Shown: positions 51,850 through 63,784 of the stretch, one piece after another
Numbering within the stretch: the first letter of the stretch is position 1
How the letters are laid out: every line of letters starts with the position of its first letter
Origin: an uncultured Gammaproteobacteria bacterium
GTDB lineage: Bacteria > Patescibacteriota > Microgenomatia > Daviesbacterales > UBA10151
DNA: 64,000 nucleotides
NCBI GenBank assembly: GCA_964392925.1
Contig: CAYMRP010000004.1
Coordinates: 71,184-135,183, forward strand
Direction of reading: 5' to 3'
The notes under the pieces: generated by a model
Told to the model about the DNA's origin: nothing
Databases searched by the model: none
The model's input: only the letters and a program-made list of their open reading frames with translations
Made by a program: the position numbers and the translations under genes

Positions 51850-53358
51850 TTAATTTACCGGTAAGCTTGATGAAGTGCCTGCCGAAGCAGCTGGACTGCC
51901 GCTAGGTGTTGGTGAAGCTTTTTGCTGAGCAGCTCTCATCGCCGGGCTAAGCGATGCTGCTGGACTTGAAGCAGGGTCTGGTGATCCGCCTACTGTAGGT
52001 GCTGGTAATGCAGTGTCTGTTGTTGGTTCCATGACTGGAACTGGAGATGGGGCAACTATTTGTGCCGGAGGATTAGTTAATGGAGCTTGTGTCTGTTGTG
52101 TTTCTTCAACAGGTAAAGAAGTTTCATCTGTAGGTGTTGGATTAGCTTGCCCCACTCCTAATATTAAATAAGCACTTAAAGCTGCAACTATCAGGATAAT
52201 TGGAATACCCGCAACTAAAAGTACTTTTGTTAAATTTAAATGCTTACCAGGAGGTGGAGCATCGCCTTCTGCTGATTGTGGTGTTGCAGAAGCCGGAGCC
52301 ATATTCAAGTTCTGATCAGCTGCAACTGGTGGGGTATAAACTCCATTCGTCTGCGAAGGTGCTGTCTCGTCACCTGCAATTAAATGCGATAAATCAGTTG
52401 GGGCATTCTCAACAGGTCCCATGTCCGGAAGAGGGGAGGCTGTAGGTGCGGCTGCAGCCTGATCAGGTTGTATTGGTGCTTGCATAGCAGCTGGATCTGC
52501 AGGCGGAGTAGTTGTAGCCCCGAGTCCCGATTGAAGTCCTGATAAATCCATCGATCCGGGTTGCGGCTGTGAGGACATAGTTTGATCCTGAATTTGGGCA
52601 GTTTCTTGTGGTGGGTTTCCAGGCTGGACATTTAGATCAATAGTAGGTGTCGCCATTGGGTCAGACATCGAAGCTGCTACTGGCGCTGCGGTTGGCGCTG
52701 AGAACTGTGACTCTGCCGGAGCCGGTTGATCCCAAGGATTAACAGTTGGTGCAGCAGGCTGAGTAGGATCACTAGGTAGCGCCGTAGCTCCTTCAAACGG
52801 ACTCTGCGGAGGAGTCGGAGTGAATGCTGTATTCAAAGGATCAGGTGGAGTAGTTGTCTGAGCACCGTATGGTGCGGCTGGTTGTTCAGGCAAAGGCGTA
52901 GGTGCTGCAGGCTGTTCAAAGGGAGGTGATGTATTAAAAGTCCCTGCTTGAGGCTGTAAAAAAGGATTAGCGGCTGCCGGATTTTCACTTGGCACTGCTG
53001 GTTCTGGAGGTGCCATCGGAGCTGTTGGTACATCTGTCGGAACAGTCGCTTGTGGGGTAGGCGGCCACGCCGCTCCTGAACTTGCGGTCGGTGTACTTGG
53101 CAATGGTGAAGAAAATCCAGGTTCTGGTGCAACAGTTTCAACCGGTACCGGGCTCCAAGGATTAGGAGCAGCTGTTGGGTTTGATTGGGCTGGATCTGAC
53201 ACAGGCATACTGGAAGAAAGGGGAGCTGATGTTGCCGATTGGTCAGGACTGCTGGACCATCCTGGAGTTTGTTGTGGAGGGGTTAATGGATCAACAGGGG
53301 CTGCGCCAAAAGGTAAACTAGGATTGTTATTTGGATTATTAGGGTCATTACTATCCAT
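51850..53358 (-). CDS. Pro/Ala/Thr-rich low-complexity protein with a single central TM helix
   Basis: A 502-aa ORF on the minus strand in an AT-rich genome. TM helix KVLLVAGIPIILIVAALSAYLILGV. The rest is P/A/T/Q-rich. Confidence 0.45.
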   Translation of the reverse strand: MDSNDPNNPNNNPSLPFGAAPVDPLTPPQQTPGWSSSPDQSATSAPLSSSMPVSDPAQSNPTAAPNPWSPVPVETVAPEPGFSSPLPSTPTASSGAAWPPTPQATVPTDVPTAPMAPPEPAVPSENPAAANPFLQPQAGTFNTSPPFEQPAAPTPLPEQPAAPYGAQTTTPPDPLNTAFTPTPPQSPFEGATALPSDPTQPAAPTVNPWDQPAPAESQFSAPTAAPVAASMSDPMATPTIDLNVQPGNPPQETAQIQDQTMSSQPQPGSMDLSGLQSGLGATTTPPADPAAMQAPIQPDQAAAAPTASPLPDMGPVENAPTDLSHLIAGDETAPSQTNGVYTPPVAADQNLNMAPASATPQSAEGDAPPPGKHLNLTKVLLVAGIPIILIVAALSAYLILGVGQANPTPTDETSLPVEETQQTQAPLTNPPAQIVAPSPVPVMEPTTDTALPAPTVGGSPDPASSPAASLSPAMRAAQQKASPTPSGSPAASAGTSSSLPVN

Positions 53359-53490: not shown

Positions 53491-56292
53491 ATGCTTAATT
53501 TTTTTTCTTCATTAATCGATGCCAATAAACGGGAAATTAATCGCCTCTCAAAAATCGTTGAAACCATTAATAGTTATGAAGCTAAAATCAAAAAGTTTGA
53601 CGATAAAAAGTTTAAAGAAAAAGCTCTAGATCTACGTAAAAGACATGAAAAAGGTGAAACCTTAGAGTCTCTTTTACCTGAAGCTTTTGCTTTCGCCCGC
53701 GAAGCCGCTAGCCGCAGCCTAGGCATGCGTCACTATGATGTTCAGCTAATGGCAGCCATCGCTTTGCACAGCGGTAAGATCGCCGAACAACGAACCGGTG
53801 AAGGAAAAACTATGTCTGGTGTTCCGGCCATTTTTCTAAATGCTCTTTCCGGTAAAGGTGTCCATGTAGTTACGGTAAATGATTATTTAGCTCGCCGCGA
53901 TGCAGGTTGGAATGGACCTATCTTTCATACTCTAGGTGTTTCAGTCTCAGTTATTATTCATGAAAAGGCTTTTCTTTTTGATCCAAAATATAAAGATCCA
54001 GACACAACAGATAAACGGCTTAAGAATTTAAGACCAGTCACTCGCAAAGAAGCTTATGCTGCTGATATAACTTACGGCACTAATAATGAGTTTGGTTTTG
54101 ATTATCTAAGGGACAACATGGCCAACAGCTTGGATAATATGGTTCAGCGAGGTCACAATTTCGCCATCGTTGATGAAGTAGATTCAATTTTAATTGACGA
54201 GGCCCGTACTCCATTAATTATTTCAGCCCCCGATACTGAGCCCACAGGTAAATATATTGAGTTCACCAAAATCGTCAGTCAGCTTGATGGTAAAACAGAT
54301 TATGTAGTTAACGAAAAAGAACGTGCAGCCCACATGACAGAGGAAGGTATTCTTCATATCGAAAAAATTATGGGTGTCGATAATCTTTATGAAAAAGATT
54401 TTTCTGCTCTTCACCATATAGAAGAAGCCTTAAAAGCCAGAACCCTTTTTCTTAAAGACCGCGACTATGTTGTTAAAGATGGCGAAGTAATTATTGTTGA
54501 TGAATTCACTGGCCGTTTAATGCCGGGCCGCCGTTACTCCGGAGGTCTACATCAATCAATCGAAGCCAAAGAAGGCGTTAAAATCCAACAAGAGTCAAAA
54601 ACTTTAGCCACAATTTCTTTCCAGAATTACTTCAGAATGTATAAAAAGCTTTCTGGTATGACTGGAACTGCAGCCACCGAAGCAGAAGAATTCTTTAAAA
54701 TCTATAAGCTGGAAGTAGTTATTATCCCAACTCATCAACCTATGATCAGAAAAGATAATCCTGATGCTATCTTTAAAACCCAAACCGGTAAATTGATGGC
54801 CGTCGCCTCAGAAGTTGAAAAAATTCATGCATCTGGCCAGCCTGTTTTAGTAGGTACAACTTCGATTGATAAAAACGAATTCTTATCTGAACTCTTAAAG
54901 AAAAAGCGGATCTCCCACGCACTTTTAAATGCTAAAAACCACGAACGCGAGGCCGAAATTATTGCTGATGCCGGTCAAAAAGGTTCAGTAACTGTAGCCA
55001 CTAACTTAGCCGGTCGTGGTGTCGATATTAAGCTTGGTAAAAATGTTGAAAAATTAGGCGGACTTTATGTTATCGGTACCGAACGTCACGAATCAAGGAG
55101 AATCGATAATCAATTAAGAGGCCGCTCAGGTCGTCAGGGTGACCCGGGTGCTTCCAAATTCTTTGTTTCTCTTGAAGATGATTTAATGAGAATCTTTGGC
55201 GGCGAGCAAGTCGCAAGAGTCATGGGCTTTTTAAAAATGCCGGAAGATACTCCTATCGAAAACGGTATGGTTTCCAAAGCAATTGAAGGCGCACAGAAAA
55301 AAGTTGAAGGTCATAATTTTGATATCCGTAAACATACAGTTGAATACGACGACGTTATGAATCAGCAGCGCCAGATTATTTATGGTGTCAGAAGGAATGT
55401 CCTGGATGTCTTAGCTGGAAAATCCAAAGATGGTAAATCTCTTAAGGATGAAATCATCGAAAAAATCGGCATTGAAGTCGAAGCCATCATTGATGACTAT
55501 GCGATTGAAGGGGAGATAGAATATGAAAAAATTATCGAAGATTTCTCAACCATAATTAATTTTGATCAAGCCAGCCGTAAACAGCTATTAGGCCAAATCT
55601 CAGATATCAAAGATGAAGCTAAATTAAAAGAATTTTTAGTCCGTCTCGCCGAAGATCTCTACGGTGAAAAAGAAAAAACCGTCGGTGCCGATCTGATGCG
55701 CCAAATGGAAAGCTTTGTTTACTTAAACACAATTGATACTTTTTGGATGGAACATCTCGATACAATGGATGATCTTCGCTCAGGTATCGGATTGCGCGGA
55801 TATGCCCAAAGAGATCCTCTAATCGAATATAAAAAAGAAGGCTTTGAGTTATTCGAAAAAATGATTGCTGAAATTGATTCAGAAATTGCCAGACGTATCT
55901 ATAAAGTCTCAATGCATAATCATGGGCCAGTCCAGGTTGTTTCTCCAATCGATATGTCAAAAGCCGTCGCAACCCACGATGAGGCGCTCGATGAAAAAAC
56001 CTTACTTGAAGAAGTCGGCCAGCTTATGCCGTCAGTTCCTGAAGTTCGCCACAGCGGAACCAAAATCAAAGTTGAAGGCTCAAGTAATGATGAGGCATAC
56101 TCTCAGACTCCGACTGTAGTCGAAGAACCAGTTGCTGCCGGCACCCGAGTTACTGTTGAAAGAGCCGGTCAGGTTGTCTCACAAGATGTCTATAACGATA
56201 CAGGTTCGCTCCAAAGGAAAAAGCCTGGCAGAAATGACCCCTGCCACTGCGGTTCAGGCAAAAAATATAAAAAATGCCATTATCCTAATTAG
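53491..56292 (+). CDS. secA: Preprotein translocase ATPase SecA
   Basis: MLNFFSSLIDANKREI start. DEAD-like motor motifs (GEGKT, DEVDSILIDEARTPLIIS). C-terminal zinc finger CHCGSGKKYKKCH. Confidence 0.9.
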   Translation: MLNFFSSLIDANKREINRLSKIVETINSYEAKIKKFDDKKFKEKALDLRKRHEKGETLESLLPEAFAFAREAASRSLGMRHYDVQLMAAIALHSGKIAEQRTGEGKTMSGVPAIFLNALSGKGVHVVTVNDYLARRDAGWNGPIFHTLGVSVSVIIHEKAFLFDPKYKDPDTTDKRLKNLRPVTRKEAYAADITYGTNNEFGFDYLRDNMANSLDNMVQRGHNFAIVDEVDSILIDEARTPLIISAPDTEPTGKYIEFTKIVSQLDGKTDYVVNEKERAAHMTEEGILHIEKIMGVDNLYEKDFSALHHIEEALKARTLFLKDRDYVVKDGEVIIVDEFTGRLMPGRRYSGGLHQSIEAKEGVKIQQESKTLATISFQNYFRMYKKLSGMTGTAATEAEEFFKIYKLEVVIIPTHQPMIRKDNPDAIFKTQTGKLMAVASEVEKIHASGQPVLVGTTSIDKNEFLSELLKKKRISHALLNAKNHEREAEIIADAGQKGSVTVATNLAGRGVDIKLGKNVEKLGGLYVIGTERHESRRIDNQLRGRSGRQGDPGASKFFVSLEDDLMRIFGGEQVARVMGFLKMPEDTPIENGMVSKAIEGAQKKVEGHNFDIRKHTVEYDDVMNQQRQIIYGVRRNVLDVLAGKSKDGKSLKDEIIEKIGIEVEAIIDDYAIEGEIEYEKIIEDFSTIINFDQASRKQLLGQISDIKDEAKLKEFLVRLAEDLYGEKEKTVGADLMRQMESFVYLNTIDTFWMEHLDTMDDLRSGIGLRGYAQRDPLIEYKKEGFELFEKMIAEIDSEIARRIYKVSMHNHGPVQVVSPIDMSKAVATHDEALDEKTLLEEVGQLMPSVPEVRHSGTKIKVEGSSNDEAYSQTPTVVEEPVAAGTRVTVERAGQVVSQDVYNDTGSLQRKKPGRNDPCHCGSGKKYKKCHYPN

Positions 56293-56300
56293 GTTTTTCT

Positions 56301-56723
56301 ATGATAAAAACAGCCAGCGAAATAGTTGACCAACTTAGAACCGAAGGTCACCGTATCACCCCGATTAGAAATCGGATTCTCGATATTCTCTCCAAGAGCA
56401 CAGAGCCTATTTCGGCATTAGATTTAATAGCAGACTTTAAATCCTCAAATCTTAACGTTAACAAAACCACCATCTACCGGGAAATAGAATTTTTATTAGG
56501 CAAAAATCTTATTAATGAAGTTGAATTTGGAGATGGCAAAAAAAGATACGAGATGGATAATGGGCATCACCATCACTTAGTTTGCTTAAAGTGTGGCAAA
56601 GTTGAAGATGTTAGTTTGGAGACGGATTTATCATCGGAAGAAAAAAAGATAGAAAAAGAAACAGGTTTTAAAGTTGAATCTCATTCATTAGAATTTTTTG
56701 GAATTTGTAAAACCTGCCAATAG
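56301..56723 (+). CDS. Fur-family metal-responsive transcriptional regulator (Fur/Zur/PerR)
   Basis: Winged-helix N-terminus. HHHHLVCLKCGKV...CKTCQ metal sites. 140 aa. Confidence 0.75.
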   Translation: MIKTASEIVDQLRTEGHRITPIRNRILDILSKSTEPISALDLIADFKSSNLNVNKTTIYREIEFLLGKNLINEVEFGDGKKRYEMDNGHHHHLVCLKCGKVEDVSLETDLSSEEKKIEKETGFKVESHSLEFFGICKTCQ

Positions 56724-56808
56724 AACTTTACTAAAGGTAAGTTGTTTACTAACAGCGATTTTCGTGCTAACTTAATCAAGTCAAATTCAAAACGAAAGGG
56801 GGTGTTTT

Positions 56809-57291
56809 ATGGAAGAACAAGTAAATACACAAGGCAGTTTGCCGAAGTTTGTAATGCCCACTGTTGTTGCAGCTCTAATAGTGTTCGCAGTTATCGGTTA
56901 TTATTTTTATAATTCCGGCTCAAATAACTCGTCTCAGCCAGCATCCACTATGGAAGGCCAAGGTTCTCCTGCAGCGGTTTCAGAAAGTAATTCGAATTAT
57001 AAAAATGGTACTTACACCATTAACGGGGAATACGTTAGCCCAGGAGGGCCCAGAGAAATTGGGGTAACTTTAACTTTGACTGATGGTTTAGTAACCGCAG
57101 CAGAGAGTCAGGTGCTCGCCGAGGATGCCACCTCTAAAAGATTCCAAACCGAGTTCGTTGAAGGTTTTAAACCAATGGTTATTGGTAAAAGTCTAAACGA
57201 AGTCGTTCTATCAAAAGTTTCGGGCTCATCTTTAACTCCTAAAGGATTTAATGATGCTGTCGAAAAGATTAAAGTTGAGGCTCAGTCTTAA
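56809..57291 (+). CDS. Membrane-anchored FMN-binding domain protein (NqrC/RnfG-like)
   Basis: N-terminal TM helix. GTYTINGEYVSPGGPREIGVTLTLTDGLVTAAE resembles FMN_bind domains. A candidate flavinylation site sits at the C-terminus (VSGSSLT, compare S/TGAT). Confidence 0.5.
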   Translation: MEEQVNTQGSLPKFVMPTVVAALIVFAVIGYYFYNSGSNNSSQPASTMEGQGSPAAVSESNSNYKNGTYTINGEYVSPGGPREIGVTLTLTDGLVTAAESQVLAEDATSKRFQTEFVEGFKPMVIGKSLNEVVLSKVSGSSLTPKGFNDAVEKIKVEAQS

Positions 57292-58170
57292 ATGATTTGG
57301 GATCAAAAGTTTAATTTTGAAGAAATAGGAACCTCATGGACTATTGAATATTCAGGAGTCTCAAAACTTTCACCTGAATTACTTATAGAAAAGATCCGCG
57401 CAGAAATTAATAAATTCTCGCGGGTTTTTTCTAGGTTTGACAAAAATTCAGCGGTTTTTAAATCAAGTAAAACCGCATCTGAGATTATTATTCCGGAAGC
57501 TTATTTACCGCTTCTAGCTATCTATAAATCTTTATATAAATTAACTGACGGTTTATTCACTCCTCTTGTTGGAAATTTACTTTCTGAATCAGGCTACGAC
57601 GAAGATTATTCTCTGGTTCAAAAAAAATTAAATCCTGTTCCGCAGTGGGACCAAGTTATTGAGATTTCCGGAGAAACAATTAAATTTAAAAAGCCCTGGC
57701 TTCTAGATTTTGGCGCGGCCGGCAAAGGATTTATTGTTGATCTGATAGGGGAGTTGCTGGAAGATCAAAATATTAAGTCCTATTGTATAGATGCCGGCGG
57801 AGACATTCGCTATAAATCTGATAACAATGAAAAACTAAAAATCGGCCTTGAGCACCCCGATAATTTAGATCAGGTTCTTGGAGTTGCAGATCTAGAAACA
57901 GGTAGTATTTGCGGCTCATCTGGAAATCGCCGCAAATGGGCAAATCTTCACCATATTTTCAACCCTAAAAAACTTGATTCTGTTAGAGAAGTCCTGGCAG
58001 TTTGGGTAATTTCAGATACTACTTTAATAGCAGATGCTCTCTCGACAGCTTTATTCTTTGTAAACCCGGAAAAGCTTTTAGGAGATTTTAAGTTTCAATT
58101 TCTAATAATTTACCCGGATTTCACTTTTAAAAAATCCCCAAACTTCCCCGGTGAAGTATATGTGGCATGA
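57292..58170 (+). CDS. apbE: FAD:protein FMN transferase (ApbE family)
   Basis: GAAGKGFIVD and IDAGGDI, compare the ApbE GxxAKGYAVD and NLGGD motifs. About 290 aa. Confidence 0.7.
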   Translation: MIWDQKFNFEEIGTSWTIEYSGVSKLSPELLIEKIRAEINKFSRVFSRFDKNSAVFKSSKTASEIIIPEAYLPLLAIYKSLYKLTDGLFTPLVGNLLSESGYDEDYSLVQKKLNPVPQWDQVIEISGETIKFKKPWLLDFGAAGKGFIVDLIGELLEDQNIKSYCIDAGGDIRYKSDNNEKLKIGLEHPDNLDQVLGVADLETGSICGSSGNRRKWANLHHIFNPKKLDSVREVLAVWVISDTTLIADALSTALFFVNPEKLLGDFKFQFLIIYPDFTFKKSPNFPGEVYVA

Positions 58171-58197
58171 GATGTCCAAGTCGGGTAAACTAGAATA

Positions 58198-59718
58198 ATG
58201 TACTTACTTAATAAAATTGATTCTCTTCTAAATTCAATCACCATGTACCGGCTGGTGCTATATGTATTACTAGTCCAATCCGCATTCGCAATAATTCTAG
58301 GTTTTCTAAATCTCCTACCTTATTCCGGAATCCAATTCACACTGACGCTTCTAGTTTTAGTCATAGTTAGTTATATATCCAATTTAATTTTTGCCTGGAC
58401 CGTCAAAGCCGTAGTTAACGTAGAGTCCTGGTTAATAACTGCCTTGATTCTTTTTTTAGTCCTGGCCCCGATAAATAATTTTCAGGATTTTATAGTCACC
58501 ACTGTTATCGCGATAGTGGCTATGGCTTCCAAATACTTTTTAACTTATGACAAAAGACATATCTTTAATCCGGCCGCTTTAGCTATGTTTCTAGCTAGCC
58601 TTTTCGGTTTCGGAAATTCTATTTGGTGGATTGGAAGTTCAATTATGCTGCCTGTCGTTTTAGTAACCGGCTTATTAATTGTTAGAAAAATTAGGAGATT
58701 TAGGTTAGTGATTATGTTCCTTGTCACAGCTGTCCTAACAGTCAGTGTCTTTAATTATTTAAATGGTATTCCTCTTACCCAAGCCTTAATCCAAGTTTTT
58801 ACATCTTGGCCTTTAATCTTTTTTGCAACGATTATGTTAACAGAGCCATTCACAACTCCTCCCAACAGAGAGTTCCGAAATTACTACGGAGTTTTTACTG
58901 GAGCATTATTTGGCTCTCAATTCTCAATCGGTCCTCTTTACGCTTCTCCAGAGCTCGCCCTAGTTGCCGGTAATTTTGTGTCATTTCTTTTAAGTCCTAA
59001 GGGTAAATTAATCCTTAAGTTTAAACAAAGAAACCAACTCGCTCCAACAATTTTCGAATTTATTTTTTCTCACAATGGGAAATATAATTTTACTCCTGGC
59101 GAATATTTAGAATGGACCCTGCCTCACCCAAATTCAGATTCAAGAGGTGTCAGAAGATATTTCACTATTGCCTCCTCCCCAGAAGAACCAGATTTAAAAC
59201 TTGGGGTTAAAATTATTCCTGATAAATCAAGTAGTTTTAAAAAAGCTCTCTTGGCTTTACAGCCCGGCAGTACACTTGCCGCCGACCAACTCTCGGGTGA
59301 TTTTGTCCTGCCTAAAAATCCCTCTCAAAAATTAGTTTTTATTGCTGGAGGAATCGGGGTAACTCCGTTTCGCAGTATGATTAATAGTCTAATTGTTAGT
59401 GGCGCAAAAAAGGACATAGTCCTTTTTTATAGCGCCGCAGATCCAAAAGAATTCGTCTATAAAGATATTTTCACTCAAGCAGAATCTTCCGGACTTAAAA
59501 CAGTTTATGTTTTTGGCGGTAAAGAAGTACCGCCTGATTGGCAAGGGGAGACAGGATTTCTAAATGAAGCAATGCTCAGAAAATATGTCCCTGATCTGAA
59601 AGAACGGAAATTCTATATGTCAGGTCCTGTCGCGATGGTTAACAATTATAAAGGCCTTCTGAAAACCCTAGGCATCTCCAACTCATCAATCGTTACCGAC
59701 TACTTCCCCGGCTTCTAG
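58198..59718 (+). CDS. Fusion of an NqrB/RnfD-like polytopic membrane domain to a ferredoxin-NADP reductase-like FAD/NAD(P)H-binding domain
   Basis: N-terminal 6-8 TM helices with RHIFNPAALAMFLASLF (compare NqrB RNFLNPALAGRAFLFF). C-terminal RRYFTIASSP (RxYS FAD site) and FIAGGIGVTPF (GGxGxxP NAD(P)H site). Confidence 0.55.
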   Translation: MYLLNKIDSLLNSITMYRLVLYVLLVQSAFAIILGFLNLLPYSGIQFTLTLLVLVIVSYISNLIFAWTVKAVVNVESWLITALILFLVLAPINNFQDFIVTTVIAIVAMASKYFLTYDKRHIFNPAALAMFLASLFGFGNSIWWIGSSIMLPVVLVTGLLIVRKIRRFRLVIMFLVTAVLTVSVFNYLNGIPLTQALIQVFTSWPLIFFATIMLTEPFTTPPNREFRNYYGVFTGALFGSQFSIGPLYASPELALVAGNFVSFLLSPKGKLILKFKQRNQLAPTIFEFIFSHNGKYNFTPGEYLEWTLPHPNSDSRGVRRYFTIASSPEEPDLKLGVKIIPDKSSSFKKALLALQPGSTLAADQLSGDFVLPKNPSQKLVFIAGGIGVTPFRSMINSLIVSGAKKDIVLFYSAADPKEFVYKDIFTQAESSGLKTVYVFGGKEVPPDWQGETGFLNEAMLRKYVPDLKERKFYMSGPVAMVNNYKGLLKTLGISNSSIVTDYFPGF

Positions 59719-59867
59719 TTATATTACGTTTCGAACGCAGTGAGAAAAACATGCTCTTCATATTTTTCGAGCATAGCGAGAAAATACTTTACTGTGTTTC
59801 GCTAACAAGTTAGAATATTGACAAACGCCACAAAGTTGCATATACTTAATGCCACAAGGTTGCAATT

Positions 59868-60857
59868 ATGGAAAGAAGAGAAGCCTCTAACGAACTAAAT
59901 AAATCACTAAACTCTGTTGGCTTAAGACTTGAAGGTGCCCCAAAAGTTATAATCCCTAAAACGCTTAGTGCTGAAATTCTGGCAGCAAAAGCCATCGCTA
60001 TGTCAGAAGACATGCAATATGGTTTTGATTTAGCAAATATAGTCACAGATCTCAGGCAATCTGCAATCAGAACCCTAAAAGACGGAAAGTCCTTTCCATT
60101 AGTACTGGATATACCAAACCTCGCAGATCCGAATTATGAACCTACTCCAGCTGATATTGCGCCTTCTTTGCTCGCCGCAAGTCTTGGAAGTTTTGCAATT
60201 GTCAGGATTGCTATGCCAAACTCAGATCACAGTATATCGCAGCTTTACGGAACAACTACACCCAGAACAAACATTGATGAGGGGGAACTGCAATTTACTT
60301 ACATCGGATTAAGAGTCTCGAGTAAGAGCGGTTATAAATGGGAGTCCCCCGCGCAAATAGATCCTTTAAGACCAGACCTGGTCTCTCCGGCCGATATGGA
60401 AACTTATTTATCAGGTGCAAATCAACTCGGCCTAGTTGGTGATCACGATAACTCAGGAATAAAAGTTTCAGATCCAAGACACTTAATAAATCTCCTCCAC
60501 GGCCTAGCAAATCCTGGACTTAGCGGACATTGGGCAGATGCACTTGAAAGTAATGGTCAAAGAAAACTTTTGACCGAAACATCAGCAAAAAGAATAATTG
60601 CCCCTAACGAGTTTGGCGACAGCTTGTATCAAGACCCCCTAAACACGACCCCTGTATTCACAATAGGTGCAGAGAGAATTCCCATGGCCATAGTTCTGGC
60701 CCCTGAACTTATGGAAGATATAGATTCTCTTGAAACCAGACGCAGTAATAAACCGGGAAGTCTTGAAACTTTGCAAGGAATGGCGCTCGCTGCACGTTTC
60801 GCGCAGAGATTAGGGGATAGCTTAGATCGGGCAATACCTAAAAGCGGAATGATTTAA
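59868..60857 (+). CDS. Hypothetical protein
   Basis: 329-aa ORF with no recognisable motif. Confidence 0.3.
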   Translation: MERREASNELNKSLNSVGLRLEGAPKVIIPKTLSAEILAAKAIAMSEDMQYGFDLANIVTDLRQSAIRTLKDGKSFPLVLDIPNLADPNYEPTPADIAPSLLAASLGSFAIVRIAMPNSDHSISQLYGTTTPRTNIDEGELQFTYIGLRVSSKSGYKWESPAQIDPLRPDLVSPADMETYLSGANQLGLVGDHDNSGIKVSDPRHLINLLHGLANPGLSGHWADALESNGQRKLLTETSAKRIIAPNEFGDSLYQDPLNTTPVFTIGAERIPMAIVLAPELMEDIDSLETRRSNKPGSLETLQGMALAARFAQRLGDSLDRAIPKSGMI

Positions 60858-60859
60858 CT

Positions 60860-61396
60860 ATGCTAGAGACAGCATCACCTAAAAAATTATTTGGAAAGAA
60901 AAAAATAGAATCTCAGGATATATCAACTCATTCTTTGGGAAACCCAATTCTAATAACAGAAACTCTCGACATTTTTAACCAAAGCCTGAGTGCCGAGATT
61001 ATAAAACAGGACCAGCAAATTACAGAGGTCCTTAAAAAAACATCAGATAACTTTATTAACTTCACAGGTCCTAAAGTTTTAGATTGGAATAAAAGTACTG
61101 GAAGAATAGCATTAGCAGAAAGTGTCATCAAAAATTCCGAAACCGAGTTTTTAGCATTCCGGCAAAGAATGACCGCTATGGCAGATGCTGATGGTTGCGG
61201 TGGTAAAAATGAAATTGCAAAATCTTCAGAGTCTGCTCTTTCTTCAAATGCGAATGTTATAGATTTTGGACAGGCGAAATTAAACAAAGCCTTAGGGATA
61301 AATAATAAACATACTCATAAATCAGGGGAACACGATCATTGTTCTCACGGCAATGATTACGGAGAATGCCCTAGCGGTTGTAAAAAAGCAGCCTAA
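60860..61396 (+). CDS. Hypothetical protein with a Cys/His-rich metal-binding-like C-terminus
   Basis: HTHKSGEHDHCSHGNDYGECPSGCKK tail. Confidence 0.3.
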   Translation: MLETASPKKLFGKKKIESQDISTHSLGNPILITETLDIFNQSLSAEIIKQDQQITEVLKKTSDNFINFTGPKVLDWNKSTGRIALAESVIKNSETEFLAFRQRMTAMADADGCGGKNEIAKSSESALSSNANVIDFGQAKLNKALGINNKHTHKSGEHDHCSHGNDYGECPSGCKKAA

Positions 61397-61417
61397 ACTC
61401 TAAAATTAGCTGACTAA

Positions 61418-62497
61418 ATGAAAAAAATCCTAGCAGTACTTCTCCTTTTTCTTGCGTTACAAATATCTCCTGCTTTAGCTCAGGAAAACTTAGATCAGAC
61501 CATAAATTCCTCTGGGTATTCAACCCCGACCGATGAAATAAAACTTGAAGGTGTAGTTTTAGAAGATGGAAAAAAAGTCGAAGTGACCTCTCCTAACCGG
61601 CAGGGCGAAATTCTAAATACTGAGCAATCTTTTAATGCCCCTAATTCTCCGAGTTTTAAAAATGGTGATAAAGTAAAAGTTTCAATCTTTACGAATCCTG
61701 ATAACTCTCAGCAAATTTTCATTACTGATTTTATTAGAACCAGCCCGCTTTATTGGCTGTTCGGGTTATTTGTTTTGCTTGTTTTAATAATAGGAAAAAA
61801 ATCAGGACTCGGCTCGCTCGTCGGTATGGCTATATCTTTTGCAGTTCTATTCCTTTTTATTGTTCCCCAAATAACCGCCGGTCAAAATCCAATCTGGACT
61901 ACTTTAATTGGAGTATTATTTATTCTTCCTATAACTTTTTATCTATCCCACGGCATCAATAAAAAAACTACTATTGCTCTTGTTTCAACTTTTCTTTCTG
62001 TTTGTTTTACCAGTCTATTATCAATCTTCTTTATTAATACCGCCAAAATTTCCGGCTATGCTAGTGAACAGGCCGGCTTTATTCAAACTGCCAGAAGCGG
62101 AAGCTTCGATATTCAGGGATTATTATTTGCCGGAATTGTAATAAGCATAATTGGTATTCTGGATGATGTCACTATTTCTCAGGCCTCCATTGTTAATCAA
62201 CTGAAGATCGAACTACCAAAAGCTAAAGTGCTAGAGCTTTATAAAAAAGCTATGAATATTGGTCGCGATCATATTGGCTCTGTTGTAAATACGTTAATTC
62301 TTGTTTATGCCGGCGCATCCCTGCCGCTTTTAGTTTTATTCACAGACAGCAGTATTGGTTTTAACGAAGCGCTCAACAATGAAATAGTCGCCGAAGAAAT
62401 AGTAAAAACTCTGGTTGCCAGCATCGGACTTGTTCTATCAATTCCTTTGACCACAATTCTGGCTGCTTATTTTCTCAGTAATGACAAAGAAGCTTAA
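61418..62497 (+). CDS. YibE/F-like polytopic membrane protein with an N-terminal extracytoplasmic domain
   Basis: Signal peptide, ~100-aa soluble domain, then 6-7 TM helices. The architecture matches the YibE/F family. Confidence 0.4.
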   Translation: MKKILAVLLLFLALQISPALAQENLDQTINSSGYSTPTDEIKLEGVVLEDGKKVEVTSPNRQGEILNTEQSFNAPNSPSFKNGDKVKVSIFTNPDNSQQIFITDFIRTSPLYWLFGLFVLLVLIIGKKSGLGSLVGMAISFAVLFLFIVPQITAGQNPIWTTLIGVLFILPITFYLSHGINKKTTIALVSTFLSVCFTSLLSIFFINTAKISGYASEQAGFIQTARSGSFDIQGLLFAGIVISIIGILDDVTISQASIVNQLKIELPKAKVLELYKKAMNIGRDHIGSVVNTLILVYAGASLPLLVLFTDSSIGFNEALNNEIVAEEIVKTLVASIGLVLSIPLTTILAAYFLSNDKEA

Positions 62498-62862
62498 GAA
62501 TTAATAATTGCTCTTGTCGCTTCAACATCCCTGGCCATTTGTGCAGTCAAATCTTTCTTATCAGGAAAATTCATAACTGGTCTTAAAAATTTAATAACTT
62601 CAACTTCGAATTCACGGGAATTCGGAATATCCGATTCCTTCGTATCAATTAAAAAGAACTCCAATGTTTTATCATCTTCTAAGAAAACCGGAATCGGCCC
62701 GTAATGCATTGCACCAATAAATTCTTTGTCTTCAATAAAAACTTTAACTGCATAAATTCCGTCATCTAAAATTAAGTCTGTTGGGATTTCTAAATTGATT
62801 GTTGGGAACCCTAAGATCTTCCCCCGGCCCTTCCCTTTAACTTGTGTGCTCTTAAACCTCAT
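62494..62862 (-). CDS. Riboflavin kinase (monofunctional flavokinase domain)
   Basis: GKGRGKILGFPTINL, then GIYAVKV and a PIPVFLED..LEFFLID pattern, matching the RibF C-terminal flavokinase domain. Confidence 0.6.
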   Translation of the reverse strand: MRFKSTQVKGKGRGKILGFPTINLEIPTDLILDDGIYAVKVFIEDKEFIGAMHYGPIPVFLEDDKTLEFFLIDTKESDIPNSREFEVEVIKFLRPVMNFPDKKDLTAQMARDVEATRAIINS

Positions 62863-63784
62863 GCTTTAATTGTAGTGAAGATAATCTCCAAATACTAAAC
62901 ATCAAAACCGCAGCTGCCAATAATTGAGTTGGAGCCAAGAATGTTTTATACAAAACTGCATCAATAATAATAGTTAACACCGGAAACACTAATTCCAAAA
63001 TAGTCGCCACCCTAACTGGAGTCTGTTTAAGACCTTTGTAATAGATAAGCAGTGCCACCATACCAGTCGATAAAGCAATAAATCCAAATTTTAGAAACTG
63101 CGAAAAATCTGGTGTAAACAATTGCGGCATCGCCCCTAGAAAAATAATAAATGGAATAGCCAAAATTGTTGTAAAAATAAATCGTAGTCCGGTAACTGTA
63201 TTAGAGTCATACTTTGTTAAAGCCATTTTAGAGAATGTTGTCGAAGTTCCCCAAGCAAACGCTGCTCCTAACGCAAATAAAGCTGCAGTTGCAGTTCCGC
63301 TGCCAGTCCCAAAATTAACCACCCCACCAGGGAAAGTGACAAAGTATGCAGCCGCAAATGCTAGGAGTGCCCAAGGTAAATAACTCTTTTTAATCGGTTC
63401 TTTAAGAAAAATTATCGCCGAGGAAATTGCAAAAATCGGCTGTAGTTTTTGGAGTAAAAATACGACAGAGAAAGGGATGAAGTTAACTTGCAAAAGTGCA
63501 GTTGTAAACCAAAGTGTACCTAATACACCGCTAAGCAACCCAATCACAATTAAAAGTAAAAATTCTTTCCGGGTTAAACGGACAGTAATTAATTTTTTCC
63601 AGATAAATGGAATTAAAATTAATAGTCCTATTAGATGCTCATAAAATACAATAATAATCGGCGGTAAAGAATAAAGGCTCCGTCTAACAACTCCGTCCAA
63701 AGCCCAAAGCACTGCTGCCGTAATAATTAATACTGGCCCTACTTTTAAAATATGTTTAATGAAGTGATTCATATAGATCCCCAC
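62852..63784 (-). CDS. DMT-superfamily transporter (EamA-like, 10 TM helices)
   Basis: Two EamA-like 5-TM repeats; 310 aa. Confidence 0.6.
   Translation of the reverse strand: MGIYMNHFIKHILKVGPVLIITAAVLWALDGVVRRSLYSLPPIIIVFYEHLIGLLILIPFIWKKLITVRLTRKEFLLLIVIGLLSGVLGTLWFTTALLQVNFIPFSVVFLLQKLQPIFAISSAIIFLKEPIKKSYLPWALLAFAAAYFVTFPGGVVNFGTGSGTATAALFALGAAFAWGTSTTFSKMALTKYDSNTVTGLRFIFTTILAIPFIIFLGAMPQLFTPDFSQFLKFGFIALSTGMVALLIYYKGLKQTPVRVATILELVFPVLTIIIDAVLYKTFLAPTQLLAAAVLMFSIWRLSSLQLKHEV

Follow-up and report, generated by a model that had tools for sequence, protein, structure and literature searches.

The closest described relative of the locus analyzed here is the NQR/RNF-like system. Méheust et al. 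gave it this name in 2021, for clusters in which a protein fusing PF03116 to PF00175 is encoded with ApbE or FMN-bind genes (PMC8238504). Out of 31,910 genomes, their census found 127, mostly of Actinobacteria and CPR, to hold 127 such clusters (PMC8238504). The pipeline called for a target gene with a signal peptide prediction, and the CPR were described as under-represented for extracytosolic flavinylation (PMC8238504). A one-way flow of electrons from NAD(P)H to the outside was proposed for the system (PMC8238504). In 2024, Huang et al. modeled a two-subunit complex from Ktedonobacter (Chloroflexota) with AlphaFold-multimer (PMC10979944). The NqrC/RnfG-like subunit of this model contacts the RnfD-like subunit directly, unlike its counterparts in Nqr or Rnf, and its covalent FMN was proposed to sample the site at which the membrane subunit holds a non-covalent flavin (PMC10979944). 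The same work noted that the flavinylated threonine of NqrB and RnfD lacks conservation among proteins of the NQR/RNF-like system (PMC10979944). A full-text literature search returned no experimental study of the system, only the bioinformatic work cited here (PMC8238504, PMC10979944).

The stretch of DNA under study (the window, 64,000 nt) covers forward-strand positions 71,184-135,183 of contig CAYMRP010000004.1 in assembly GCA_964392925.1, and all positions given below are those of the window. The original prediction concerned a single ORF, which was read as an RnfD/NqrB-type membrane domain fused to an FNR-type flavoprotein. This fusion is borne out by sequence and by fold, and the peptides quoted for it (HIFNPAA, RRYFT and GGIGVTP) are all present (Table 1). 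Upstream of the fusion gene, on the same strand, lie genes for a Fur-family protein, a 160-aa protein and ApbE. The end of apbE is separated from the fusion ORF by 27 nt, and the gene for the 160-aa protein, which has an FMN_bind fold, lies directly 5' of apbE. The 2021 definition asks for one protein that carries an N-terminal PF03116 and a C-terminal PF00175 region, with ApbE or an FMN-binding gene within five genes of it; the locus has such a protein, and both kinds of gene lie within this distance. By domain content and gene order, the cassette is a member of the published NQR/RNF-like class, a class proposed from genomes and AlphaFold models. It shares with that class the defining fusion, the adjacent apbE, a membrane-anchored NqrC/RnfG-like second subunit, the loss of the flavinylated threonine from the NqrB/RnfD-like domain, and Patescibacteria/CPR as a main host group. 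We assign a probability of about 0.7 to the joint reading that positions 56809..59718 are a three-gene NQR/RNF-like cassette for an FMN-binding subunit, ApbE and the fusion protein, and that its products would form an all-flavin conduit, free of heme and Fe-S, that takes electrons from NAD(P)H in the cytoplasm and delivers them, in this direction only, to the external face of the membrane.

The surroundings of the cassette can be described briefly. The Fur-family ORF starts 9 nt past the stop codon of SecA. Downstream of the cassette are genes for proteins of 329 and 178 aa without known function and for a YibE/F protein, an arrangement common only to a 94%-identical wastewater contig. A downstream ORF at 60860..61396 encodes a His/Cys-rich C-terminal tail. 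Promoter and terminator scans gave chance-level results. The two genes immediately upstream of the fusion gene, apbE and that of the FMN-binding subunit, are explanatory context that the earlier reading had missed.

Table 1. Features of the locus, with positions in the window and residue numbers of the encoded proteins.
Feature	Position	Strand	Details
Fur-family metalloregulator	56301..56723	+	140 aa; Pfam FUR E 7e-28
NqrC/RnfG-like FMN-binding subunit	56809..57291	+	160 aa
Predicted ApbE flavinylation motif S138-G-S-S141 (SGSS)	57220..57231	+	from the translation
ApbE-family FAD:protein FMN transferase	57292..58170	+	292 aa; Pfam ApbE E 2e-41
Fusion protein ORF	58198..59718	+	506 aa
RnfD/NqrB-like membrane domain of fusion protein	58198..59007	+	aa 1-270, 10 helices
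HIFNPAA motif, fusion protein	58558..58578	+	aa 121-127
Short outer loop FGFGNSIWWIGSSIM, fusion protein	58603..58647	+	aa 136-150
MLTEPFTTP motif, fusion protein	58834..58860	+	aa 213-221
FNR-type FAD/NAD(P)H module, fusion protein	59008..59718	+	aa 271-506
RRYFT, FNR module	59152-59166	+	aa 319-323
GGIGVTP, FNR module	59347-59367	+	aa 384-390
SGPxxM, FNR module			aa 475-480 of fusion protein
DYFPGF, FNR module			C-terminal

The membrane domain finds its best matches in RnfD and NqrB in a fold search, and these match it about two times better than any transporter does. The Pfam match to PF03116 (NQR2_RnfD_RnfE, aa 140-238) is marginal, at 28.0 bits against a gathering score of 27.7. Compared alone with PDB sequences, the domain has RnfD as its sole match, a weak one (E 0.12) over the C-terminal half. 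A profile of 24 family sequences reaches RnfD at E 5e-4, also over the C-terminal half, and hhalign aligns only aa 159-261 with E. coli RsxD. The identity of the N-terminal half rests on fold because the sequence alignments reached only the C-terminal half. Two conserved motifs have counterparts in RnfD. HIFNPAA corresponds to 'NPFNPAM', and H121, F123, N124, P125, A126 and A127 are invariant in the family alignment. MLTEPFTTP corresponds to 'TDPVT' when aligned with RnfD and RsxD by HMMER and hhalign, with M213, T215, E216, P217, T219 and P221 invariant. A cluster of invariant residues (N74, E76, S77, H121, N124, T215, E216 and T219) faces inward. The model contains 10 helices, which replaces the 6-8 transmembrane segments first proposed. 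The whole fusion protein has three His (121, 292 and 310) and no Cys, and H121 is the only His of the membrane domain. Heme and Fe-S centers are impossible because the membrane domain has one His and the protein has no Cys, and flavins are therefore the only plausible redox cofactors.

The membrane domain was compared with the RnfD/NqrB structures of Rnf and Na+-NQR complexes (PDB 8ahx_D, 7zc6_D and 7xk3_B). RnfD and NqrB have a periplasmic loop of about 100 residues with the covalent-FMN threonine, whereas the fusion protein has 31 residues and no such motif. E. coli RsxD (MG1655) has its FNPA at residue 121 and, at 184-187, SQAT, a motif of the flavinylation type. In the hhalign alignment, residue 159 of the fusion protein lines up with RsxD residue 233. 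The distance from FNPA to this anchor is 107 residues in RsxD and 31 in the fusion protein. The shortened segment is the Trp-rich outer loop FGFGNSIWWIGSSIM, in which W143 and W144 are invariant. A threonine in an S-x-A-T motif, by which the covalent-FMN site of RnfD/NqrB is canonically recognized, is absent from the fusion protein, and [ST]G[AS][ST] does not occur anywhere in the membrane domain in any of 24 family sequences. Judged from these alignments, the fusion protein has lost by deletion the long periplasmic loop on which RnfD/NqrB bear the covalent-FMN threonine; the early suspicion of a missing NqrB threonine was right. The fusion protein also differs from RnfD/NqrB in carrying its own NAD(P)H dehydrogenase and in having no RnfA/B/C/E or NqrA/D/E partners in the window and none conserved across 80 related loci.

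The C-terminal part of the fusion protein matches PF00175 (NAD_binding_1) at E 5e-16, and NCBIfam places its last 230 residues among the FNR-type reductases, NqrF included. An FNR region of 200 residues had been proposed; its motifs hold, while its length does not, since the reductase module spans about 235 residues with the FAD barrel included. The module has the two-domain fold of the FNR superfamily. In common with NqrF and other reductases of this superfamily (7qty_A, 4wqm_A and Fre), it combines an FAD beta-barrel and an NAD(P)H Rossmann module with R-x-[YF]-[ST], GGxGxxP and [CS]GP motifs and a C-terminal aromatic residue. NqrF-type reductases match it better than siderophore-interacting proteins. 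At the N terminus of NqrF is a [2Fe-2S] ferredoxin domain that has four Cys; the fusion protein has no such domain (0 Cys) and, unlike NqrF, joins its FNR module directly to the membrane domain through a linker rich in Lys and Arg. A candidate flavinylation site within the FNR domain (GST, aa 357-359) was rejected for want of conservation.

The distribution of charge indicates how the fusion protein is oriented. The five predicted outer loops of the membrane domain contain no Lys or Arg, whereas the count for the inner loops together with the linker is at least 11; directly ahead of the FNR module, the linker has five. Positive clusters are found at aa 163-169 (RKIRRFR) and directly before the FNR barrel (SPKGKLILKFKQRN). 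The helices of the model, the positive-inside rule and homology together predict an N-in/C-in protein that crosses the membrane 10 times and has its FNR module in the cytoplasm. An FNR domain outside the cell, which would have overturned the first reading, is at odds with this pattern.

In the FMN-binding subunit, a membrane anchor (aa ~14-36) is followed by a linker of low complexity and then by an FMN_bind-fold domain (aa ~64-160). The FMN_bind fold of this 160-aa protein was recognized by fold search only. Pfam gave no match at E<=10, FMN_bind (PF04205) included, and a PF04205 match is recorded for just one of the 120 listed homologues. Nothing meaningful was obtained when a profile of the subunit was compared with PDB sequences or when it was aligned with E. 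coli RsxG by hhalign. The SGSS motif sits just before the C-terminal helix, and G139, S140 and S141 are invariant across 29 homologues. Among 67 homologues from related loci, the motif column reads SGSS in 36, SGAT in 15, AGSS in six, SGAS in four, TGAT in two and NGSS in two. S138-G-S-S141 is the predicted ApbE target motif, and Ser141 the predicted site of FMN attachment. Compared with the FMN_bind domains of the NqrC/RnfG/PplA type, the subunit has SGSS instead of SGAT and is too divergent for PF04205. It differs from those in reports on the NQR/RNF-like system in belonging to an SGSS-motif subfamily that escapes detection by Pfam FMN_bind. The N-terminal hydrophobic anchor looks uncleaved. 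In two loci (L037 and L040), a lipoprotein-type VAGC signal replaces the anchor, which points to an external FMN-binding domain. The N-terminal side of the anchor is richer in Lys and Arg than the C-terminal side in 43 sequences, equal to it in 23 and poorer in 16; the positive-inside bias of the anchor is only moderate.

The location of flavinylation is less easily explained. The ApbE profile matches the cassette enzyme at 142.6 bits (cutoff 25.6), with profile position 2 at residue 13. No signal peptide, lipobox or membrane anchor was found in this ApbE, and an in-frame TAA directly precedes its ATG. Related loci that carry apbE have a likewise signal-less start. ApbE enzymes acting outside the cytoplasm typically have a lipoprotein or secretory signal. 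The signal-less enzyme, which sets this locus apart from the NQR/RNF-like systems as reported, is hard to square with a substrate domain that appears to be external. The FMN-binding subunit might be flavinylated before export, and in that case an FAD exporter would not be needed; otherwise, the assumed topology or the export route might be unusual. ApbE enzymes that reside in the cytoplasm and act on substrates there are known (PMC12052999).

The fusion was at first called unusual, a description that its distribution contradicts. When one genome of each GTDB species was scanned for two motifs of the membrane domain, relatives were confirmed in at least 579 species genomes. Among the matches listed, most records are labeled Patescibacteria/CPR (Daviesbacteria, Levyibacteriota, Saccharibacteria, Paceibacteria and Gracilibacteria), and other hosts belong to the Chloroflexota, among them Ktedonobacterales and Dictyobacter alpinus, which is in culture. 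The membrane domain also served as the query of an exhaustive HMMER search, which yielded 1366 clusters (50% identity) at E<=1e-3 and 366 at E<=1e-30, and the best 150 of the 1366 cluster representatives are mostly about 500 aa long, and thus fused. Both domains are on one ORF in 81 of 82 fetched loci. The search for homologues thus reveals the standard architecture of a large family, named in 2021 and modeled in 2024. Where the upstream flank measures 1.7 kb or more, as it does in 67 loci, the exact order FMN-bind, ApbE, fusion is kept in 54, from Patescibacteria to Chloroflexota, and an FMN-bind-type gene occurs somewhere in the locus in 63. Neighbor clustering over 80 loci found no conserved fourth gene or acceptor. 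Sporadic neighbors in these loci are ABC transporters (11), response regulators (11), ECF sigma factors (10) and MsrA (four); the top neighbor 'clusters' were antisense ORFs within the fusion gene. The difference between the 127 clusters of 2021 and the 579 or more species genomes found here may arise because clusters like this one probably fail the 2021 filters. The family is probably under-counted in the CPR because the SGSS subunit is invisible to Pfam, because 60 of 120 close homologues of the fusion protein have no recorded PF03116 match, and because a signal peptide served as a filter.

Electron transfer through the cassette would most likely proceed in four steps. NAD(P)H would reduce FAD in the cytoplasmic FNR module, for which the motifs and the fold are observed and the cofactor and nucleotide specificity are predicted. 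The electron would then pass to a putative non-covalent flavin in the RnfD/NqrB-like domain, near N74, E76, S77, H121, N124, T215, E216 and T219. We infer this intramembrane flavin from the AlphaFold-multimer model of 2024 and from an analogy to the sites that bind riboflavin and FMN in NqrB. From there, the electron would reach FMN attached covalently to Ser141 by ApbE, a presumed modification for which motif, fold and gene linkage are observed. The FMN of Ser141 may dock in an outer pocket, lined by W143 and W144, that the deletion of the RnfD/NqrB loop would have emptied. In the final step, the external FMN would reduce an acceptor for which the cassette carries no gene. The original prediction held that a direct fusion would short-circuit the Nqr path, and this agrees with the published proposal of unidirectional electron flow (PMC8238504). 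The same logic underlies NOX/FRE proteins and the flavinylation-associated MsrQ-like and PepSY-like reductases that have PF00175 at the C terminus: the electron conduit in the membrane and the NAD(P)H module in the cytoplasm are fused, and ApbE and an external FMN-binding protein accompany them. These proteins cross the membrane via two b-type hemes held by four His, whereas the fusion protein must use flavins. Because a Fur-family regulator adjoins the cassette in this genome, the leading guess is that Fe(III) is reduced for iron uptake or that the system serves in metal or peroxide stress. A general electron sink that regenerates NAD+ for a fermentative CPR bacterium is equally possible.

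The iron question leads to a narrower version of the conduit reading, an assimilatory ferric reductase whose external FMN reduces Fe(III) or its chelates for uptake under the control of a Fur-family repressor. The Fur-family gene directly upstream on the same strand speaks for it, as do the His/Cys-rich tail encoded downstream and the VIT1 ferrous-iron transporter that Méheust et al. found in six NQR/RNF-like clusters (PMC8238504). Against it, the Fur-family gene adjoins the cassette in just three other loci among 82 (L001, L002 and L022), which are the closest relatives. The gene is a lineage-specific neighbor outside the conserved cassette, a feature in which this locus differs from the reported systems. 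The best NCBIfam matches of the regulator, Fur of the Bacillus type (105.8 bits) and PerR (82.5 bits), are both below their cutoffs, and its profile scores do not separate Fur, PerR and Zur. A scan for the 7-1-7 Fur-box consensus with at most three mismatches found 14 matches window-wide against 9.0 ± 3.1 expected, which is chance level, and none between 54393 and 62964, a span that covers the whole cassette. No inverted repeat was found in the spacer between the Fur-family and FMN-bind genes (56724..56808), and no iron transporter is conserved beside the cassette in 80 loci. A dedicated ferric reductase is possible on this evidence, though on balance unlikely. The broader notion that the CPR version is a two-subunit all-flavin pump for Na+ or H+, a system flavinylated in the cytoplasm before export, or both, seems doubtful. 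Were it true, it would be an unrecognized bioenergetic or cofactor-handling strategy in Patescibacteria that lack a respiratory chain.

Other readings carry less weight. In a minimal redox-driven pump, electron flow through the NqrB/RnfD-like domain would drive the export of Na+ or H+ and provide a membrane potential to a bacterium without a respiratory chain. In real pumps, NqrD/E or RnfA/E hold the intramembrane Fe-S center, and these proteins are absent from the window and are not conserved across the 80 loci. Nothing in the analysis shows ion binding, and the published view is one of simple downhill electron export (PMC8238504), which makes pumping rather improbable. An Amt- or urea-channel-like domain could instead import a flavin or a metal chelate for reduction by the FNR module in the cytoplasm, on the model of the siderophore-interacting reductases. 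This arrangement is very improbable in view of the roughly twofold better fold match of RnfD/NqrB and the better match of NqrF-type reductases already described, and it leaves no role for the tightly linked ApbE and FMN-binding subunit. The fold and the two motifs common to RnfD (FNPA and T[DE]P) would also suit a divergent RnfD/NqrB subunit of a canonical six-subunit Rnf/Nqr complex with its other genes elsewhere in the genome. However, the covalent-FMN loop is deleted, the protein has its own NAD(P)H dehydrogenase module, and the family occurs mainly in small-genome Patescibacteria. The six E. coli Rsx proteins (RsxA-E and RsxG) gave no significant tblastn match in the window, and no canonical Rnf/Nqr gene cluster is conserved around the fusion gene in the 80 related loci, leaving such a subunit with a slim chance. 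Least of all can the membrane domain be a NOX/FRE/MsrQ-type di-heme ferric reductase domain joined to FNR, an alternative that the original prediction had named as its own refutation. The di-heme site of such proteins has four His ligating two b-type hemes. With one His (H121) and no Cys in aa 1-270 and with RnfD/NqrB as the best folds, this alternative is already refuted by the sequence, and its probability is close to nil.

The published concept of the NQR/RNF-like system is unchanged by this locus. The locus is a compact, cysteine-free and heme-free example of the class that looks convenient for expression, and it poses the question of where flavinylation happens. It also suggests that the system is far more common in the CPR than the 2021 census reported, and that censuses based on Pfam and on signal peptides probably under-count the NQR/RNF-like family. 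Patescibacteria/CPR are regarded as symbionts that live by fermentation and lack electron-transport chains. A flavin-only transmembrane NAD(P)H module would give these bacteria an external electron sink, a means of iron reduction, or redox repair of surface proteins.

The ApbE of the cassette lacks a signal peptide, a lipobox and a membrane anchor, and a signal-less ApbE is also found in nearly all of the related loci that carry an ApbE gene (among the 82 fetched). Yet the presumed substrate domain of this enzyme, in the FMN-binding subunit, appears to be external. A VAGC lipoprotein-type signal in the FMN-binding subunits of two related loci is useful evidence for an extracytosolic FMN-binding domain. 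A signal-less ApbE with an external substrate implies that flavinylation either takes place prior to export or relies on an export route not yet known.

Features of the window and of related loci (L numbers)
Feature	Sequence	Coordinates	Strand	Remark
502-aa protein	window	51850..53358	-	extremely Pro/Ala/Ser/Thr/Gln-rich
FMN-binding subunit	window	56809..57291	+	SGSS motif
ApbE	window	57292..58170	+	
Fusion protein	window	58198..59718	+	
Promoter-like site	window	59818-59846		strong, 11/12 matches
Downstream unit	window	59868..62497	+	329-aa protein, 178-aa protein, then YibE/F membrane protein
Riboflavin kinase (PF01687)	window	62494..62862	-	stand-alone, 122 aa
EamA-family transporter	window	62852..63784	-	
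MsrA	L029	10663..11232		
FMN-binding subunit	L037	4504..5085		VAGC replaces plain anchor
FMN-binding subunit	L040	3984..4475		VAGC replaces plain anchor
RnfD-like domain	L041	5815..6789		no FNR on same ORF

Upstream of the cassette, the start of a Fur-family gene follows the secA stop codon by 9 nt (56292..56301), a spacing which suggests that the two genes may share one transcript. No Fur-box-like palindrome was found directly upstream of the cassette (56724..56808). Downstream, the promoter-like site precedes a separate unit, the genes of which were found only in the closest relative. Its 329-aa and 178-aa proteins have no family match, and the His/Cys-rich C-terminal tail of the latter, HTHKSGEHDHCSHGNDYGECPSGC, looks like a metal-binding sequence. 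At a distance of about 2.8 kb downstream from the flavin cassette, the riboflavin kinase gene overlaps the EamA gene; the two may act as a pair in riboflavin salvage and supply the flavins. The pair is common to the window and the 94%-identical contig; among the fetched loci, only three show a match to riboflavin kinase and two a match to EamA. Elsewhere in the window, the 502-aa protein has no family match and contains a single hydrophobic segment around residues 385-410, and the local GC content rises there to 0.467, compared with about 0.38 in other parts. The protein probably belongs to the cell surface or envelope.

In only one locus of the 82, from Candidatus Collierbacteria GW2011_GWB2_45_17, the RnfD-like domain is encoded without an FNR module on its ORF, and ApbE and FMN-binding genes are not detectable next to it. 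This locus may represent a variant that is unfused or has decayed. Downstream of the cassette, at a distance of about 3.7 kb, four loci including L029 carry a gene for methionine sulfoxide reductase A (MsrA), a weak hint that exported electrons could partly serve in the repair of oxidised surface proteins. Many records titled 'uncultured Gammaproteobacteria' MAG, among the matches listed, carry cassettes with 43-66% identity in the membrane domain to the Patescibacteria-type cassette of the window (including L007-L011, L013 and L017). The titles of these records may be wrong.

The FMN-binding subunit of the window gave no Pfam FMN_bind match even at E<=10, PF04205 is recorded in only 1 of 120 listed homologues, and the PF03116 signal in the fusion protein is weak. 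As a result, Pfam-based censuses probably under-count the NQR/RNF-like system in CPR genomes.
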